Positions 33,521 to 62,367 of a stretch of DNA of 64,000 nucleotides are shown one piece after another (position 1 is the stretch's first letter; every line of letters begins with the position of its first letter). Made by a program: the position numbers and the translations under genes. Source of the DNA: a phage. The stretch is from the sequence record OZ346212.1; one strand, given 5' to 3'. The notes under the pieces are model-generated. The model searched no databases. It saw only the letters and a program-made list of their open reading frames with translations, and had not been told where the DNA came from.

Positions 33521-35944
33521 ATGAGCATGTGGTCGTTCGACTTTGAGTCATCCGGTTTGCTGGAAGACCCAGATCTTTATTATCACTGCGGCCTGTTTAA
33601 AGAGCTGAATAAGAACCGTTTTATGCTGTTCCTTCCTCTAAATGACCGCACACACTACTCCGAGGAGGATATAGAAAAGGCTAAGAACTTCATTCTGGCA
33701 AAGAAAACTCTTTATAAAGATTTTGAAGTTCGCATAGCAGATTTTTCAGAGTTGGAAGGTTGGCTTACAGGAAATTCTGACTGGTCACCAACAGCTTTGA
33801 ACTGCCATAACTGCTACAGTTATGACTTTATGCTGATGGAAAGATTATCTGGTATTCATTTTGATATGTTCCGTGATCCTAAGTGTATGGGGACTATCAA
33901 CGATCACCAGGTTAACCTGTTTGATACGTTGGCGATGAGCCGAATCTTGTGGCCTGATCGCCCTTTACCAAAAGGTTGTCCGGACTCTGTATTCAACCCG
34001 GTTACTAAGAAAATGCAGCCTGTTGGTCCTCACGGCCTTATGGCATGGGGCTACGCCCTTGGTAACCAGAAAGTTCAAATTGATGACTGGCGCGATCTTC
34101 CGTTATGGAAGTATGTGGATCGTGTATTTGAGGACGTTATCATCCAGGAGCTGCTCTGGAAAGAGCTGGTAGCGGAATCAAAAGGTGTATTCTACGGCAA
34201 ATCTGACATGCAGAACTTTATGTACGATCCTGCCAAAGAGAAGCCGAAAGGGTTCAAGAAGATCACCTGGAAGAACGCATTACGTCGAGGCATGTTGCAG
34301 CACTTCCTGATGGAGCTGCAGGCCCGTCAGGGTGTATACTTCGACATAGATGGGGCTATTGCTTTACGTGACCGCTGCGATGCGTGGATGAAAGAGATCG
34401 CTGATCGTGTTGAACCACAACTGCCTTTAAAAGAGCTGTCAATGTCTCAGCGGCCCAAGTTCCCTGAAAAGCCGTTTAACCAAGATGGGACAATCTCTAA
34501 TAATGGTTGGAAATGGTTAAAAGATAAGCTTGGCTATCCTGTGGACATGAGTGCTTTAGAGTTCAAAGCCCCACCTAAGCGAGCATTTACCTCTACAGGA
34601 GATGTCAGTAAGATGGGGATAAAATGGTGTGAAGAGATGGGCTGCAAAGACCACGATAAGATGGCTGATTTCTTGAGAGGTTATATTAAGGGCACCTCCA
34701 CACCACAACCTTTACCTAAAGAGCTGATGGATCAGGCAATAAGCGATCTGCAACAGAAGCGAATGCCTGACTGCAAGATACCTATGAAAATCAGCAATCA
34801 GGACGACATTAAGCGATACCTGATCAGTGCTGGTTGGCTTCCGACAATGTGGAGAACTAAGGATGTAACTAAGGACAGCAAGAAGAAAGCTCTACCTGAT
34901 GCAGATGTTGATGCACGAGTATATGCATACATGGACGAGCTTTTAGAGTCAGAGTATTGTGACCTAATTATCAACTTCTGGAACAAAACTGATGCTAAGT
35001 TTCAGACAACAGTGCACAAGTTCCGAAGCTTTCCTAACTCCGAAAGGATTAAAAAGGAAGTGTTCGGGAAAATACGCAGAAAAGCCAGGGCACTTATTAC
35101 TTCTCCGCAACTGAAAGATACGTTTGGACACCTATGTCCGAATCTTGAAAAATTGAACGGAGAGATGGCTAAAGATATCGTCTTGTGGTTATCATTGCGA
35201 AACCGCAGATCGGTCCTTGATCCAATCAAGGAGGATAAGGTTGATACTGGTCTTCTTAATCACCCACGTTTGAAGATTGACCATAAGCTTCCTGCTAAAA
35301 GCTCTGGATTAACAAACACTTCCCGACAGAAACACAGTATTTGTGCAAACATGCCTAAACCATCTCCTAAAGTGGTTATGGGTAAAGAGATGCGTAGCTT
35401 GTGGGGTGTTCCTCCTGGATACTTTGAGATCGGTATTGACGGGTCCAACTTAGAGCAGCTTATCGGGGCTTGGGGTGCCTTTGAGTTCGACAACGGCTTG
35501 TACTATGATGTTGTAAGTAACGGGGACGCACACCAAAACAATGCTGAGGCATATACAAAAGTAGCAGGCAGAGAGGTGTCTCGTAACGACGGTAAACCTA
35601 TCACGTATGGGGTTATGTACGGGGCACAAAAAGATAAAGTTGCAGATATGCTGGATATCTCCCCAGAGTTGGGGCAAAGGGTGATCGATGCACTTTGGGA
35701 TGCCAACCCAGGTCTTAAGGGGCGCAAAGAGGATCTGGAGAAATTCTGGGAAGCAACAGGTAAGAAGTTTATCTACTCTTTTGATGGTCATGCTATCTGG
35801 ACCCGATCTAAACACTCTTTACTTAATGCATACCAACAAAATGGCGGCGCATCGTTGTGTGACTTAGTTGGGATACTCATGCACCATCAAATGGTGAAGC
35901 GTGGGTGGTACGATGAAGGTGTTCGTCGTATTATCTATTACCAT
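33521..35944 (+). CDS. DNA polymerase, family A, exon 1 (exo domain through motif B)
   Basis: Exo I SFDFES; motif A ...EIGIDGSNLEQL...; motif B ...RNDGKPITYGVMYGA...; the ORF reaches a stop 2 codons after the proposed 5' splice site and lacks motif C. Confidence 0.8.
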
Positions 35945-36786
35945 AAATAACATTGTGGCTTCGTGCAGTGATGCACGTCGAAAACCTCTTTAATTGACGG
36001 GAAGGCTAAGTTGACTTTTACACCTAAACATGGTAAAAGCTCAATATGCTAATCCGCAGCGAAGACTAAAGGGGTGTAGTTAAAATGGCTAGATCAGTTG
36101 AGTATCACGGATATACCGTGTTTGATGATGGAACAATACCTTTATCGAAACGTGATCATACAACAATGTTTTGTTTTGATAATGGTCGAGGTTACCTTTG
36201 CGTAACCATGTTCATCGAGGGGAAGCAGTGCACAAAAGGTGTCCACCACTTGGTTGCTGAATGCTTTGTATCAAACCCTGATCCTGAAAGGCTCACATGG
36301 GTGAACCATAAGGACGGAAACAAATACAACAATGCATACTGGAACCTTGAATGGACCACCCCTGGTGGAAATATCAAACACGCTTATGATAATGACCTCA
36401 GAGTAAGGCCAGTCGGTGAGTATAATGCCAACGCTGTACTGACCGAGGATGAGGTAACGGAGATTTGCGAACTGTTACAAAGTGGTTTACGACAATGCGA
36501 GATTAGGGATCTTGGGTATCCTTATGAGACGGTCAGAGCCATAAAGCAAAGAAGACAGTGGAAACATATCTCTAAAAACTACACCTGGTAGTAACGTTCA
36601 GAGACTATCGAAAGCATAGCGCCAACATAAATTGGTGCGAAGAAGCGAGTAGAGTAGACCAGCAAGTGCGGTCGAAATGGGAGGTGCCTTGGTAACAAGG
36701 TAGTGAGATAGTCCGATCCATACAGGAAACTGTATGGCTGTGCACGTAATGGTGCGGGGTAGCTTAACGACCTACCTGAACTATTG
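35945..36786 (+). ncRNA. group I self-splicing intron (842 nt) interrupting the DNA polymerase gene
   Basis: Core elements P aattgacgggaagg (35992), Q aatccgcagcgaag (36051), R gttcagagactatcg (36596), S gagatagtccgatcc (36705); exon ends in U pairing with intron GUGG; intron ends in G; removal restores RIIYYH-DEYQLQV (motif C). Confidence 0.75.
36085..36591 (+). CDS. HNH homing endonuclease encoded within the intron (168 aa)
   Basis: HNH_3-like motif VHHLVAECF...VNHKDGNKYNNAYWNLEWTT; lies between Q and R elements (P6-loop position). Confidence 0.8.
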   Translation: MARSVEYHGYTVFDDGTIPLSKRDHTTMFCFDNGRGYLCVTMFIEGKQCTKGVHHLVAECFVSNPDPERLTWVNHKDGNKYNNAYWNLEWTTPGGNIKHAYDNDLRVRPVGEYNANAVLTEDEVTEICELLQSGLRQCEIRDLGYPYETVRAIKQRRQWKHISKNYTW

Positions 36787-37140
36787 GATGAGTACCAACT
36801 TCAAGTCCCTGACACACCGAAGTATAAGACTGTGTACACCTTCGACACAATCGAAGAACTGGAAGCATTTAAGGCAGAGCAGGAGGCCAAACTTCATGTG
36901 TTCGACGGTCATAAGTACAAAAAGGCACGCAAGGATGAGGACGGAAACGAAGTGGTTGACAGAGACGGAAACACGGTGTACGATCCTATCCTGAACGATG
37001 ACGGAAAGCTTGAACTTATCTGGAGCCCTGTGGGTGAAATGGTGGTGCATTGCTTCTGGCAAGCTTCTAAAATGATGGGCGTCCCGTTCCAGATCACGGG
37101 TGAATACCTGTGTGGTCGTAATTGGGGTGATTGTCACTAA
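36787..37140 (+). CDS. DNA polymerase, family A, exon 2 (motif C to C-terminus)
   Basis: Begins DEYQLQV in frame with exon 1; no plausible independent start or RBS. Confidence 0.7.
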   Translation, partial: DEYQLQVPDTPKYKTVYTFDTIEELEAFKAEQEAKLHVFDGHKYKKARKDEDGNEVVDRDGNTVYDPILNDDGKLELIWSPVGEMVVHCFWQASKMMGVPFQITGEYLCGRNWGDCH

Positions 37141-37189
37141 TGTAAACTATCAACACATGGAAGTGTTGTTGAGCAAAGAGGAGACTTTT

Positions 37190-37474
37190 ATGGTAGTAGA
37201 ACCAACAAAAACATTTACATCCATGACTATCCCTGTTATTATGCAGGTGGAGTGTGTTCAGGTATCTCAAGTGTGGCCTGGCACCAAAATCCCGACAGGG
37301 CCTGATTTCTTTCAGGTTGGCAAAGTGTACAATGTCTGGAAGGCACCAGATTGTTACCCTTTCATCAAAGATGACCGTGGGATGCTGTGGTATCTTGGAA
37401 ATGATTTGACACTGCACCTTGGGAATGCTATTATTGCAGTATTCAGACTTAACAAGAAGGAGACTGATCAATGA
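37190..37474 (+). CDS. small protein of the KDDxGxxW family (94 aa)
   Basis: ATG 37190 with SD AAAGAGGAGA; motif FIKDDRGMLWYL shared with the next two genes. Confidence 0.55.
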   Translation: MVVEPTKTFTSMTIPVIMQVECVQVSQVWPGTKIPTGPDFFQVGKVYNVWKAPDCYPFIKDDRGMLWYLGNDLTLHLGNAIIAVFRLNKKETDQ

Positions 37475-37698
37475 CGACTTTGGTTAAAGCTACCTTTGTA
37501 GAAGAAAAGATGACAGACCTGTCATTCTTTAAAGAAGGAAAGACCTACGAGGTTTATTACGATAAAGCTCGTGCAAATAAAATGATTAAAGACGAGGAAG
37601 GGGTTGCCTGGTTTATCTCCCATCTGGCAAACGGTGAGTATCATATCTACGGAACCACCCTGCTTGCCAAGTTTGTAGCTGTTGAAGAGGACCTATGA
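37471..37698 (+). CDS. small protein of the KDDxGxxW family (75 aa)
   Basis: SD AAGGAGA; motif MIKDEEGVAWFI. Confidence 0.6.
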   Translation: MTTLVKATFVEEKMTDLSFFKEGKTYEVYYDKARANKMIKDEEGVAWFISHLANGEYHIYGTTLLAKFVAVEEDL

Positions 37699-37889
37699 AA
37701 GTAAAGTATCTGGCTGAGGGTATGAGTAGGTATTTCACCCTTGGTGAAGAATATTGGCCATTTACAAGCAACGGCGATGTCTACGTGAAAGATAATTTCG
37801 GCACGCCATGGTTTTTGCACCCTAACGGGTTAGGGTATTCTATTTATCGCAGTGCAATGAGCGACACAACCCTTGCAGAGTTTGTATAG
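37695..37889 (+). CDS. small protein of the KDDxGxxW family (64 aa)
   Basis: SD-like GAAGAGG; motif YVKDNFGTPWFL. Confidence 0.6.
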   Translation: MKVKYLAEGMSRYFTLGEEYWPFTSNGDVYVKDNFGTPWFLHPNGLGYSIYRSAMSDTTLAEFV

Positions 37890-37899
37890 AGGAGGTAGA

Positions 37900-38271
37900 A
37901 TGTTAGTAAAAGGTACTCACACAGTCAAACAACGTATCGAAGTTGAGATCGATGACTGCGAGCTGAAGCATATTTTACGGTCATGTTCCAACGTTTTGCT
38001 CCTTAGTATTCTCCAGGAGCGAGCGGAGAACGAGTTCTTAAATGCACTGGCAGGCCGCCCTGGTGATTTCTGTGTGCGTAAGCGTGGTGACAACAAGTCA
38101 TGGCTGTGGGAGATAGACGCAGAATGGGATTACCATAAAAATGAGGGTATAGATGAACCTATTCGTGAATTGACGGACAACGAGGTTCAGATGTACAATG
38201 AAGTTTGTCAGTGGGCAAAAAGTCAACAAACTTATCTTGATCCTTGGTGGATGATCGAAAATAGTCGTTGA
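37900..38271 (+). CDS. hypothetical protein (123 aa)
   Basis: ATG 37900 with SD GAGGAGG preferred over upstream track start 37873. Confidence 0.6.
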   Translation: MLVKGTHTVKQRIEVEIDDCELKHILRSCSNVLLLSILQERAENEFLNALAGRPGDFCVRKRGDNKSWLWEIDAEWDYHKNEGIDEPIRELTDNEVQMYNEVCQWAKSQQTYLDPWWMIENSR

Positions 38272-38347
38272 CAGGAAGTAAGATTAGATATAAGATGCTT
38301 CACACAAACAGAGCGTTGATTGTTTAACACTTAAGGAGACCGCTAAG

Positions 38348-38602
38348 ATGAAAATTACTCTGAAGCCAGAATGCGTTGAAAATGACCGAGCTTTTAAAGA
38401 TTGCACAATCGGTGCAATTTATGAAGCAGAGTTTTGTGAGAACCCTTTGGTAAAAGCCCTTCTGGAAGAAGGAGCTCCTCTATCACAGGAAGAGCTTGAT
38501 GAGTTGGAAAACTCAGCACAGTGCCTTACCTTTAAAGATGATGAAGGAGACTCTGTCTGGTGCACTGTTAATGAAGTAGTTTTTGTAAAACCTGAACATT
38601 AA
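38348..38602 (+). CDS. small protein, paralog pair member (84 aa)
   Basis: SD AAGGAGA; KPECVENDRAFKDCT...TFKDDEGDSVWCT aligns with 38666..38938. Confidence 0.6.
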   Translation: MKITLKPECVENDRAFKDCTIGAIYEAEFCENPLVKALLEEGAPLSQEELDELENSAQCLTFKDDEGDSVWCTVNEVVFVKPEH

Positions 38603-38605
38603 TGC

Positions 38606-38634
38606 TTGACAACAGTCATAGGGCCTACTATAAT
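38606..38634 (+). promoter_or_regulatory. consensus sigma70 promoter (TTGACA-N17-TATAAT) with inverted repeat AGGGCC/GGCCCT flanking the -10
   Basis: Perfect hexamers at 38606 and 38629. Confidence 0.7.
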
Positions 38635-38665
38635 GGCCCTATCAAAACGAAAGGGGACCACAGCA

Positions 38666-38938
38666 ATGACCAAACAATATCAACGAATTAAAGCCAAGGT
38701 TAAGCCAGACTATCTGGAGAAGGACTCTGCTTTTCGGGACTGCACAGCTGACAAAGTTTACACAGGGGCCGTCCTGTTGAACGATGAACTTGAAGTAGAT
38801 ATTCTGGGTAAAGAGGCCACTATTAAGGACGACCAAGGCGATTATGTTTGCTGCACCACACGTGAGCTAGAAATCTTAGAATACTTCGGTGAAATCTTCA
38901 CCTCTCTTGATGATTACTTAGATGATGAGGAAGCGTGA
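38666..38938 (+). CDS. small protein, paralog pair member (90 aa)
   Basis: Start moved to ATG 38666 because track start 38606 lies inside the promoter; KPDYLEKDSAFRDCT...TIKDDQGDYVCCT. Confidence 0.6.
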   Translation: MTKQYQRIKAKVKPDYLEKDSAFRDCTADKVYTGAVLLNDELEVDILGKEATIKDDQGDYVCCTTRELEILEYFGEIFTSLDDYLDDEEA

Positions 38939-39327
38939 TGAAAAATATTTGGGATATCGATATCTTTGAAGCCTCTAAGCTTGATGGTGCTGATGGAGTG
39001 ATTATGGTGTCTGATGGCAAAGCAACACTAACTTCCGGAGATATCATCTATGCCTTGGACGAGCTGGCGCTTCTGAAATCTACCGGTAACACTTTAGAGG
39101 AGCGTCTTCAAGGCTTCGCCTTCAAAGAAGGCACAAATACCGCCATGATGTGCACCACACGGACAGTTCAAGTTGGTAACGGTGTCTATATGATCATTGC
39201 TGTGTGTCCTAAATTCAGCAACGTCAACAAAGATGATGCTGACGCTGTCAACGATGTGGTTGTTCTCTTCGTGGGTGACGCTATGGCAGATCTGATGAAT
39301 GCAGGAGAAGCAGCAAATGAAGACTGA
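38935..39327 (+). CDS. hypothetical protein (130 aa)
   Basis: SD GAGGAAG, start overlaps upstream stop. Confidence 0.6.
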   Translation: MMKNIWDIDIFEASKLDGADGVIMVSDGKATLTSGDIIYALDELALLKSTGNTLEERLQGFAFKEGTNTAMMCTTRTVQVGNGVYMIIAVCPKFSNVNKDDADAVNDVVVLFVGDAMADLMNAGEAANED

Positions 39328-39619
39328 AAACATCACCCCCGCAGGGTTCTTAAAAGTATACCGTGAACTGCTATATACTACAGAGGACAGTGTTCTAGAG
39401 TATCCAGAATATCTTTTGCTGTATAAGTATCTGCAGGAGGCTGGTGAAAATCTGCCAGTTAGTGCAGAAGGTGGTCCGAACTGGATATACAGCGCATGGA
39501 GAAAGGTTGACATTCTCCCAGATCCGGGTAAAGATATGGTAGTTTGGCAGCTTATCAACAACATCGGGATTCCAATCTTTGATGAAGCTGTTAAAATCTA
39601 TTTTGAACTTGACGATTAA
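39317..39619 (+). CDS. hypothetical protein (100 aa)
   Basis: ATG 39317 with SD AGGAGAAG; overlaps end of upstream gene. Confidence 0.5.
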   Translation: MKTENITPAGFLKVYRELLYTTEDSVLEYPEYLLLYKYLQEAGENLPVSAEGGPNWIYSAWRKVDILPDPGKDMVVWQLINNIGIPIFDEAVKIYFELDD

Positions 39620-39636
39620 TATCAGGAGACCTTAAG

Positions 39637-39882
39637 ATGGCTGAAGTAGTTGCTCGCGCAGGACAGAAAGTACGTTGTGTGGAAGTAGGTTTTGGTGGCA
39701 AAGGGTGTCAAAACTTGACTCAAGGTAAGGAATACGCTGTTATTTCTGGTGGTGGCGACGAGAGTATTGTGTTCGAGGGCCACATCCTGGATGCTGAAAA
39801 CTTTGAAATCTTTGACGACGATGGAGATCCGATCACCTGCCTGCTGGACGGGAATTGGGGAACTTTCGAAGTGATTGGCTAA
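39637..39882 (+). CDS. hypothetical Gly-rich small protein (81 aa)
   Basis: SD AGGAGAC upstream. Confidence 0.6.
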   Translation: MAEVVARAGQKVRCVEVGFGGKGCQNLTQGKEYAVISGGGDESIVFEGHILDAENFEIFDDDGDPITCLLDGNWGTFEVIG

Positions 39883-39965
39883 CAAATACCTATTGTAATT
39901 TACAGAAGGGGATGCTAAAATAGTGTCTCCTTCTATGTTGTTCAAATAAAATCGGAGATTCCATA

Positions 39966-40331
39966 ATGGAACAAATGAACGATCAAGCGTCGGTTGCGAT
40001 GAACGAGCAAGAACAACCTCAAGAATTTTTCTTAGGGTTAAGTAAAGATCAAGTGTCTCTTCTGCTAGTGCTTTCTTCTTTCATGGGAAGACTTCAGGAG
40101 CTCACACAACAGCCAGAGGCTGAACAATTATTCCAAGCTTTGCGTGAAGAAGAAAAATATCGTCGTTTGGACTATGCCTTAGGTTGGGTAGCTCAACAAC
40201 GAGATATGCTGATGGCCCTCTCTGGGACCACAAGTTTTGCAATGGGGCTGTTGGCTCAAGTTCAGGACAAATTAATTCAAGCAGGGTTTGCACACACGGC
40301 AAACACTAACGAAGAACAAGGAGACAAATAA
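39966..40331 (+). CDS. hypothetical protein (121 aa)
   Basis: SD GGAGA upstream; start of next gene overlaps stop. Confidence 0.6.
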   Translation: MEQMNDQASVAMNEQEQPQEFFLGLSKDQVSLLLVLSSFMGRLQELTQQPEAEQLFQALREEEKYRRLDYALGWVAQQRDMLMALSGTTSFAMGLLAQVQDKLIQAGFAHTANTNEEQGDK

Positions 40332-41557
40332 TGAGCGTTATTCAACAATTCGCTAACCCGATGAATCCGCGTGAAACTGTTTTACTGGCTCACGGCATGA
40401 TTAAACGTGTCAGCATCAAGCCTATCAAAGGTGCTGATCCTACAACAGGTATTAAAACCACTGTGTGGCAAGGTAAGAAAATTGAATCCAGCCACACCAT
40501 CTCTTTACTGATTTCTGAACTGGATTCCTCTGATAACCTGCTTCAAGGTGGTGAAGAAGTTTGGATCAGCATGGGTGATAAGCTGCTTAAACCTGGTCAT
40601 CAAGACTCTGTCTCTGTTAAAATTGATGACAAGTGGGAAACCGTAACGCCGGGATGGATCGTAAATATTCCTTTGAAGGCAAACGAGCATAACGGTAAGA
40701 CCTATTACAAAGGCTCACTGGCTAAGATGGTCAAGCTGGGTGCAGGAGAGGCTCCAGCAGCGACTCAGCAGCAAAAACAGCAACAAGGTGCACAATCACA
40801 AGGCCAGAAGCAGAAACCTCAGCAGAATGCCAATCAGGACGTTTTACGCATCTATGGTGATGTGACTCAGATTGTTGGCAACGTGGTTACTGTTAATGAC
40901 CACAAGATTGGCGAAGGTGCTATGGTTGTAACTGATGAGCAGCTTAAAGACCTGGTGGTAGGTGGTCGTGTTGCAGCCATTGTTGACAAAGACACCGGAA
41001 ACATTATCAGTGGTTTCAAGGCCTATCCTCCTAAGGCAGAGAACGGCACTCAAGGCTCTGGTGGCAAGCGTAAATCCTCTTACGACCCTATCGGTGTGGA
41101 AACGGGGCATAGCATCAATGCGTTGCAGATCATCCTGGATCGCGGGTTTAAGGTAGACGACCCACTGGGCGTGGCTAAAACACTGCACGTAGTCACCATT
41201 GAGCTTAAGAAAGAGTATGCTCAAGCCACCAACCGAGCTGAAGATGAAGTAGGTGCCAGTGTCGGTAATGCGGTGTTGAACGCTTGTCGCCGTATTGACA
41301 AGAAAACGAAAGTTGATGATTTTGCAGTGGCAATTACTGCAGAAGCAAAAGATGTCTTGACTAATCTAGCTGAGCCGTTGTACGATTGGATCAAGAACGG
41401 TGCTGAGTCCACTGACCATCAAGAACCTCAGGCTGCCAAACAGGAAGCAGCTCCACAGCAAAACACTGTAGACGCTCCTCCTGTAAATGATGCGGAAGAT
41501 GACCCAATGGATCAGAATCCAGCACAGTACGTCTTTGATGATGACATCCCATTTTAA
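40331..41557 (+). CDS. ssb: single-stranded DNA-binding protein with host-like acidic C-terminal tip (408 aa)
   Basis: C-terminus ...VFDDDIPF ends in the hexapeptide DDDIPF of E. coli SSB; Gln/Gly-rich linker precedes it; located in replication module. Confidence 0.65.
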   Translation: MSVIQQFANPMNPRETVLLAHGMIKRVSIKPIKGADPTTGIKTTVWQGKKIESSHTISLLISELDSSDNLLQGGEEVWISMGDKLLKPGHQDSVSVKIDDKWETVTPGWIVNIPLKANEHNGKTYYKGSLAKMVKLGAGEAPAATQQQKQQQGAQSQGQKQKPQQNANQDVLRIYGDVTQIVGNVVTVNDHKIGEGAMVVTDEQLKDLVVGGRVAAIVDKDTGNIISGFKAYPPKAENGTQGSGGKRKSSYDPIGVETGHSINALQIILDRGFKVDDPLGVAKTLHVVTIELKKEYAQATNRAEDEVGASVGNAVLNACRRIDKKTKVDDFAVAITAEAKDVLTNLAEPLYDWIKNGAESTDHQEPQAAKQEAAPQQNTVDAPPVNDAEDDPMDQNPAQYVFDDDIPF

Positions 41558-55868: not shown

Positions 55869-56120
55869 TTAACGTTCTACAAAAATACCGTTCAGTTCAA
55901 TAACCAGGAATTTCTGGTCTTCACTATCGTCTCGTGCCAGCACCTCACAGACGTATCGGTCATCCCCATCATCATCGCAGTCAAATACAAGACTGAGGAC
56001 TTTATCATGGTAAACCTTCGCCACTACCGCCTCGTAAGTATTGCCGATTGTGAATCCAAGATAATCTCCGATGCATTTGACAACAACATGGTCTCCAGCA
56101 TTTAAGTCAATCTTCGTCAT
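55869..56120 (-). CDS. hypothetical acidic small protein (83 aa)
   Basis: ATG 56120 with SD AAGGAG preferred over track start 56186. Confidence 0.55.
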   Translation of the reverse strand: MTKIDLNAGDHVVVKCIGDYLGFTIGNTYEAVVAKVYHDKVLSLVFDCDDDGDDRYVCEVLARDDSEDQKFLVIELNGIFVER

Positions 56121-61888: not shown

Positions 61889-62083
61889 TTAGAATATTGC
61901 TTCTTCCATTGCGCCTGAGAGCAACAAAGAGGTGATCTGGCTAACATTCATCTCAGACTCTACTTCCTCCCCTTTGAAAGGTTCGCGGCAGAATAGGACT
62001 GTTTCAGGACTTTTACTTCGAACAATATAATACAAATCATTCAATGTGTTGTAGTAATAAGTGTTAAAACGTAAGTTTTTCAT
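61889..62083 (-). CDS. hypothetical small protein (64 aa)
   Basis: SD AAGAGGA; followed by a weak hairpin and about 200 nt with no credible ORF. Confidence 0.55.
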   Translation of the reverse strand: MKNLRFNTYYYNTLNDLYYIVRSKSPETVLFCREPFKGEEVESEMNVSQITSLLLSGAMEEAIF

Positions 62084-62367
62084 TTTCTAGTCCTCTTCTT
62101 AGATTTTTGGGGAGAAACGCTTTCTGCAATACGAGACAGACGTTCTTCTGAAGCCTTACCTACTCCAGGTTTTTTGAGTGGATTATCTTTATGACCACAA
62201 TCCAACTGGATATTGGATACCTCTCCAACTTTGTAAGTCAATTCTAGCAAAAGGTTGTCGTCCTTGTCAAATGTTTTTACGATAAATTTTTTATCGTTCT
62301 CCTGAACTTCATATCTGGTACCTGCAGTATACAGCATGGTGCCATCAGCATAGGATATCCAGATCAT
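62080..62367 (-). CDS. hypothetical basic small protein (95 aa)
   Basis: SD AAGGAGG; coupled. Confidence 0.6.
   Translation of the reverse strand: MIWISYADGTMLYTAGTRYEVQENDKKFIVKTFDKDDNLLLELTYKVGEVSNIQLDCGHKDNPLKKPGVGKASEERLSRIAESVSPQKSKKRTRK

Follow-up and report, generated by a model that had tools for sequence, protein, structure and literature searches.

A small-gene array downstream of the DNA polymerase gene

We analysed a 64,000-nucleotide (nt) stretch of phage DNA (sequence record OZ346212.1, hereafter the window), focusing on an array of small genes that lies directly downstream of the DNA polymerase gene, within the replication module. The source phage is a Vequintavirus (an rV5-like Escherichia coli myovirus), and positions 36700-40400 matched 119 phage records, the best being phage naswa (99.4%). 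The array comprises three genes (A1, A2 and A3), an intervening gene (X) and two further genes (B1 and B2), and the A and B genes carry the annotation 'hypothetical protein' in every annotated record (Table 1). In the numbering of the rV5 genome paper they are genes 224 to 219, followed by genes 218 to 214 (here C to G), and genes 214-224 were reported there without a database homologue. Our analysis resolved the array into two families of small acidic accessory proteins, each expanded by tandem duplication and independent of the other. For the first, together with gene E, we predict a rare fold, the beta-barrel of six strands known from Gp54, a phage protein sensed by the immune protein CapRel.

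The first three genes are tightly packed, with A1 starting 49 nt past the polymerase gene and both the A1/A2 and A2/A3 junctions formed by ATGA overlaps. Predicted isoelectric points (pI) of the array proteins range from 4.1 to 6.5, and catalytic motifs were found in none of the A or B proteins.

Pairwise similarity, expressed as Smith-Waterman z scores against 1000 shuffles, was high for A1-A2 (9.6) and A2-A3 (5.9) and just 2.5 for A1-A3, so that the trio is linked through A2. B1 and B2 were closer still (z 16.3; 97.4% probability with hhalign), each matching the other's PHROG family at ~1e-6. A1, A2 and A3 are therefore true tandem paralogues, as are B1 and B2. An earlier note on this DNA had grouped the genes starting at 37190, 37471 and 37695 by a shared G(K)xY and KD(D/E/N)xGxxW motif and had aligned those starting at 38348 and 38666 with each other; the genes, coordinates and motifs all held up. 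It had further suggested a single family for the five genes, naming a lack of significant pairwise similarity as grounds for rejection. Similarity was significant within A and within B, whereas all six A-B pairs gave z <=1.6.

The motif behind that proposal is distinctive in the window, where [ILVFM]-K-D-[DEN]-x-G occurs in exactly A1-A3, B1 and B2 among 341 six-frame open reading frames (ORFs) of >=60 amino acids (aa), against an expectation of 0.4. Given the paralogy, however, these five occurrences amount to just two independent ones.

Table 1. Genes, promoters and candidate relatives discussed in the text (positions in the window; HMM, hidden Markov model)
Feature	Position	Strand	Size	PHROG family	Characteristics
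A1 (rV5 gene 224)	37190-37474	+	94 aa	phrog_12922	GKVY at 44, IKDDRGMLWYL at 59; predicted beta-barrel domain with long insert in strand 1-strand 2 loop
A2 (rV5 gene 223)	37471-37698	+	75 aa	phrog_12623	GKTY at 23, IKDEEGVAWFI at 39; predicted six-stranded beta-barrel; central member of trio
A3 (rV5 gene 222)	37695-37889	+	64 aa	phrog_12802	GEEY at 17, VKDNFGTPWFL at 31; predicted beta-barrel domain
X (rV5 gene 221), intervening gene	37900-38271	+	123 aa	phrog_6273	No similarity to A, B or E
B1 (rV5 gene 220)	38348-38602	+	84 aa	phrog_12544	pI 4.2; KPE, DRAFKDCT, FKDDEGDSVWCT
B2 (rV5 gene 219)	38666-38938	+	90 aa from ATG 38666	phrog_11936	pI 4.2; KPD, DSAFRDCT, IKDDQGDYVCCT
D (rV5 gene 217)	39299-39619			phrog_1451	Pfam DUF7238 above threshold (30.8 bits, E 3e-7)
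E (rV5 gene 216)	39637-39882	+	81 aa	phrog_4927	Fourth assigned member of the A-type beta-barrel superfamily, 1.7 kb downstream of trio
Promoter-like site within A1 3' end, upstream of A2	37406-37434	+			TTGACA-17-TATTAT, 11/12 match, extended -10 (TG)
Sigma-70-type promoter before B1	38268-38296	+			TTGACA-17-TAAGAT, 10/12 match
Perfect consensus sigma-70 promoter before B2	38606-38634	+			TTGACA-17-TATAAT, 12/12 match
Weak barrel-family candidate	55869-56120	-	83 aa		LNAGDHVVVKCI...FTIGNTYEA...DDDGDDRYVC; independent HMM E 0.011; not established
Weak barrel-family candidate	62080-62367	-			Independent HMM E 0.016

Family A belongs to a widespread phage domain superfamily

Word-indexed protein searches returned close Vequintavirus relatives only and nothing distant. 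A profile searched exhaustively against 1.8 billion representative proteins yielded 17 matches, including single-domain small proteins (P0081 and P0085) and phage-like proteins with 2-5 tandem copies of the domain (P0079, P0080, P0082, P0084, P0087 and P0088), with the two copies of P0088 fused to DUF3310. Four large cellular repeat proteins (P0077, P0078, P0083 and P0086) scored only through summed weak repeats and were left out. The domain spans ~60-75 aa and carries a shared signature, (F/Y)(F/W)TxGKxYxV followed after 8-12 residues by (I/V)xDDxGxxW.

A family HMM built solely from the outside units, with no sequence of this phage group, recovered A2 (expect value, E 7.5e-10), A1 (1e-7), A3 (3.4e-7) and gene E (2.6e-4). 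Profile-profile comparison with hhalign against the wide family agreed, giving probabilities of 97-99% for the Vequintavirus A set and 93-94% for E (P ~1e-7), and 5 of 22 family units matched phrog_4927, the family of gene E, with E values down to 2e-8. Profile evidence thus places A1, A2, A3 and E in a large phage-specific domain superfamily, and by the same comparisons the firm relative of the trio in the window is gene E, which the earlier note missed, and not the B pair.

Existing resources do not represent this grouping. PHROGs splits A1, A2, A3 and E into separate families, and six families of 'unknown function' (3523, 3249, 4927, 16833, 10169 and 17857) share the FTxGKxYxV...DDxG signature with family A, being cross-matched from A1, A2, A3, E and the outside units; the multi-repeat proteins fall to phrog_3523. 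Scans of ten neighbouring proteins and the family units produced no Pfam or NCBIfam model that covers the A-type domain, and none for B1 or B2 either. Gene E reached Pfam DUF7244 (PF23896) at 14.5 bits (E-value 0.039), below the 27-bit gathering threshold, and A1-A3, B1-B2 and the 22 family units did not match it.

Two more ORFs of the window are weak candidates for this superfamily (Table 1). The one at 55869-56120 carries both an N-terminal xGDxVxxKCI element and the DDDGDxxYVC turn, and its family, phrog_12851, is also matched by Bas11 gp61, itself a match to the family HMM. In the Bas11 genome, four ORFs matched this HMM at E < 0.01.

The predicted fold is that of the CapRel trigger Gp54

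AlphaFold2, given the A alignment headed by A2 and with A1 and A3 among its rows, produced an A2 model with a mean confidence (pLDDT) of 90.1. The model has strands at residues 2-10, 25-31, 36-40, 46-48, 56-60 and 64-73, with a short helix in the strand 1-strand 2 loop (residues 11-24), and superposes globally on crystal structure 9AXB, clearly above other folds. As modelled, A2 shares its fold with Gp54 from phage Bas11 (PDB 9AXB), a barrel of six beta-strands in which a long loop joins strands 1 and 2, and we predict this rare fold for the first family and gene E. A2 resembled small beta-barrels of the SH3-like type, such as FeoA and the SH3 domain of RecD (5LD2), far less than it did 9AXB; SH3 domains have five strands and a 3-10 helix, as opposed to six strands in A2. 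In the model, the motif of the earlier note is structural, with GKxY opening strand 2, KDDxG forming the end of strand 3 and its turn, and the Trp beginning strand 4. Viral models searched with Foldseek included dozens of small proteins from coliphages that are modelled with this fold, and single genomes contributed several of them.

Gp54 was described as a six-stranded barrel with a strand 1-2 loop, a topology called very rare (PMC11578894). Gp54 activates the fused toxin-antitoxin CapRel(SJ46) by binding to it. The phage can do without the protein, for which no function is known, although the authors of that work suggest that it may inhibit another defence system (PMC11578894). Activation involves partial unfolding, and even close Gp54 homologues failed to activate CapRel (PMC11578894), indicating that CapRel activation is not a family property. 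We identified Gp54 as bas11_0054 of MZ501085, in which all residues named in that paper match, and found no later work on Gp54 function in the literature.

With 66 aa, Gp54 of Escherichia phage Bas11 (JohannLBurckhardt) is similar in size to the A-type proteins (64-94 aa) and, like them, belongs to the small accessory proteins of lytic coliphages, with other small genes surrounding its own. The Gly and Trp that are invariant in the family align with Gp54 G24 and W43 in an hhalign alignment that is itself non-significant, which suggests a possible equivalence of these residues. Both G24 and W43 are listed in the CapRel interface, and G24D is the escape mutation (PMC11578894). The two nevertheless differ in that Gp54 has HSGLTW in place of the KDDxG turn, matches phrog_7421 only and none of the family A PHROGs, and comes from a Drexlerviridae siphovirus rather than a Vequintavirinae myovirus. 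Searches of PDB sequences with profiles of A, the wide family and B produced chance-level matches only.

Family B is restricted to rV5-like phages

B1 and B2 were found only in rV5-like phages, comprising 116 records, each with both copies, plus a diverged clade. The AlphaFold model of B1 was unusable (pLDDT 51). These two genes form a separate family restricted to rV5-like phages and without an assignable fold.

We next asked how far the data allow a common origin of the two families, in which A1-A3 and B1-B2 descend from one ancestral small-protein gene and B is a strongly diverged barrel with a helical insert between strands 2 and 3 and one strand fewer. The best single result came from hhalign of the wide family against B (17.8%, P 0.0014), in which TxGxxY and KDDxG aligned in the same order; B against E gave P ~0.01. 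The KD[DEN]xG motif is confined to these five genes of the window, the order of elements in the weak B1 model (strand, loop, strand, helices, strand-turn-strand) is compatible, and B sits in a locus where A/E-type genes come and go. Against this, A-type alignments compared with B gave 1.9% (P 0.025), and adding relatives ~55% diverged, and hence more diverse B sequences, took the probability to 0.2-8% (P 0.004-0.3), while the controls, which were unrelated families from neighbouring genes (X, C, D and F), returned P values of 0.06-0.9 and in one case 0.017 (B1 against C). The independent HMM misses B1 and B2 (E 2-7), hhalign of these two against the superfamily stayed at 0.6-8% and thus within the control range, z does not exceed 3.3 for B against any family member tested, and no PHROG was matched by both an A-type and a B protein. 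The single family of five genes proposed earlier is therefore not supported, its A-B comparisons (0.2-18%) overlapping those of unrelated controls. On account of the co-linear motifs and the shared locus we keep a distant A-B link in view, as a possible but doubtful one. An apparent match of the B profile to gene C (E 8e-4) was an artefact of a B2-C fusion protein (P0063) in the alignment.

Promoters and translation starts

The claim that B1 and B2 each have their own sigma-70 promoter, one of them perfect, was borne out (Table 1). Hexamers of both promoters are invariant across five Vequintavirus genomes, with spacers that vary, and in the clade ~55% diverged, perfect 12/12 promoters lie at both the B1 and B2 positions (the latter in IMG/VR relative L014). 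The B1 promoter had been predicted in the rV5 genome paper as P220, and the site in the 3' end of A1 is identical to its P224, but the perfect promoter before B2 is absent from those predictions. Late promoters predicted for rV5 have a motif that differs from the sigma-70 sites. From the conserved consensus promoters and the position in the replication module, early expression of the array is plausible.

In some genomes B2 is annotated from a longer start (ATG 38633), which falls inside the -10 hexamer. The ATG at 38666 is preceded by a ribosome-binding site (AAAGGGGA) and is the start used in the ECP26 annotation. Since the longer start overlaps the promoter and a ribosome-binding site precedes 38666, the latter is the better B2 start.

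Purifying selection and gene turnover

Compared with four other Vequintavirus genomes, the ratio of non-synonymous to synonymous substitution rates (dN/dS) was 0-0.29 for every gene, at dS values of up to 1.1. It was 0.08-0.09 for A3 and 0.06 for B2, and the A1 protein was 100% identical at a dS of 0.67. All of these genes are thus real and under purifying selection. The earlier description of the family as 'diversifying' finds no echo in these values, and the identity of A1 at such synonymous divergence argues against ongoing diversifying selection.

Gene content is nonetheless variable. In the laboratory phage WalterGehring (Bas51), which is viable, A2 carries a frameshift; this may point to dispensability, although all genes are under purifying selection. 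Natural variants of A1 include a frameshifted form (P0051) and an 11-aa internal duplication between GKxY and KDDxG (P0032, 15 member sequences), and B2 occurs fused to gene C (P0063, above). The number of A genes is two rather than three in L013-L015, diverged relatives from IMG/VR. In one of them (L014; UViG_3300045988_159287), an extra A/E-type barrel gene (positions 1822-2196; family HMM E 1.2e-5) is located between B1 and B2, directly downstream of a perfect TTGACA-17-TATAAT promoter. The locus acts like a hot spot into which A/E-type cassettes insert.

No A or B homologues were found after the polymerase gene in PVP-SE1, KpS8, W70 or P7_Pc, four related phages that represent Seunavirus, Mydovirus, Certrevirus and, with W70, an unclassified phage. 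A tblastn match in Cronobacter phage CR9 (E = 2) was rejected, being a non-syntenic 151-aa gene after the ligase gene that fails the HMMs.

Neighbouring features

The family A DNA polymerase gene upstream of the array is interrupted by a group I intron at 35935-36736 (Rfam RF00028, 39 bits, E 4e-8, full-length model), which encodes an HNH homing endonuclease ORF (36085-36591). Exon 1 ends near 35934-35950 and exon 2 extends to 37140. The gene is uninterrupted in phage naswa and annotated as split in Bas51 and Bas52.

Downstream, gene D is the sole gene of the block with a Pfam family. At the far end, rV5 gene 214 (40331-41557) encodes a 408-aa protein with a Gln-rich linker and a C-terminal DDDIPF, without a Pfam or NCBIfam match. 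DDDIPF is the C-terminal tail motif of the E. coli single-stranded-DNA-binding protein (SSB), and the gene 214 product may be a phage single-stranded-DNA-binding protein that recruits host SSB partners. Among the database records, 16 GenBank entries carry the name 'Campylobacter phage', with C. jejuni as host, and share ~95-100% identity with this part of the rV5-like coliphage, which looks like mislabelling or contamination of the entries.

Possible roles of the encoded proteins

Function is inferred, not shown, for the A and B proteins. We give slightly better than even credence to the view that the two families, A with a Gp54-like barrel, consist of binding modules probably aimed at host targets. 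The A and B proteins, none with catalytic motifs, are most likely small, acidic, non-enzymatic binding modules. Their production would probably be early or coincide with that of the replication genes. Host RNA polymerase would transcribe B1 and B2 from their consensus promoters, and A1-A3 would be translationally coupled through their ATGA overlaps behind the polymerase gene, with the promoter-like site as an internal one before A2. Once made, they would probably bind host proteins for takeover or counter-defence and, by analogy with Gp54, could themselves be recognised by immune proteins of the host, for example CapRel. The repertoire would be adjusted as cassettes at the locus are duplicated, lost or inserted. 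T7 Ocr, a small acidic early phage protein that binds host factors, offers a functional analogy only, being small, acidic, non-essential, driven by host-type promoters and devoid of catalytic motifs but having no structural or sequence relationship to the A or B proteins. Ocr inhibits one defence system and triggers another (cited in PMC11578894).

Several observations weigh against host targets and the Gp54 comparison. Anti-defence or defence-related models (PADLOC, a defence-system library) gave no match among the ten neighbouring proteins. The Gp54 link derives from one predicted structure, that of A2 alone, and sequence homology between A and Gp54 was not detected by hhalign (0.15%) or HMM searches of PDB sequences (no match), and pairwise z scores, though consistent, were weak (2.4-3.1). 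No transcriptome of any rV5-like phage was found in the literature. The A1 protein is perfectly conserved and its gene coupled to that of the polymerase, which would suit a role in the phage's own replication at least as well as one in an arms race.

Such a replication role is the main alternative to host targets, with the A-type barrels acting as accessory factors that bind the polymerase, helicase or DNA rather than as host-directed effectors. It would account for the ATGA-joined trio 49 nt behind the polymerase gene, for the A1 protein that is unchanged at dS 0.67 and for low dN/dS in all genes. It accords poorly with the absence of these genes after the polymerase gene in the related genera examined, with the frameshifted A2 of a viable phage and with copy numbers that differ between clades. 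The Bas11 gene for Gp54, for its part, has small hypothetical genes around it and a Dcm-like methyltransferase gene upstream, with no replication genes beside it, and the acidic pI of the array proteins is unfavourable for DNA binding. On balance we regard a replication role as unlikely. We consider it very improbable that the A and B proteins are minor virion or decoration proteins, as might be read from weak matches to phrog_14592 'virion structural protein' (A2, E 0.05; two other family units, ~1e-3) and from one Foldseek match in another Vequintavirus annotated 'putative minor capsid protein'. These supporting annotations are unverified, the 'MS evidence' (mass spectrometry) mark of the rV5 gene table is on no row for genes 214-224, and the position of the genes is within the replication module, with sigma-70 promoters that differ from the late motif predicted for rV5.

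Binding modules aimed at host targets could also be part of a wider pattern, though here we are speculating and think the idea rather improbable. The Gp54-like barrel would underlie a large superfamily, as yet unnamed, of evolvable binding modules that phages duplicate and swap so as to target host proteins or defence sensors, with B1 and B2 as a helix-inserted offshoot. Its modules would come as single genes, as arrays of copies in one genome (at least four in the window and several in both Bas11 and other T1-like phages) and as proteins of 2-5 tandem repeats.

Significance

The five or six 'hypothetical proteins' per genome at this locus, in more than 100 genomes, can now be grouped. The fold family itself was already known but uncharacterised, and the A-type array would be a new member of it. 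The useful result is the model-based structural link of the rV5 gene array to the orphan CapRel trigger Gp54 through a widespread, unnamed domain family, one that is common in coliphages, with several copies per genome, and has no Pfam entry. Gp54 has so far been an orphan with a rare fold, known only through its sensing by CapRel, and the predicted link to a sequence superfamily would give it a family and many testable relatives, including genes of the easily manipulated BASEL phages Bas51-Bas58. Should the barrels prove to act as immune triggers or as effectors that bind host proteins, the array of rV5-like phages, with three coupled copies, one separate copy, natural knock-outs and copy-number variation, would be a convenient place to find their targets.

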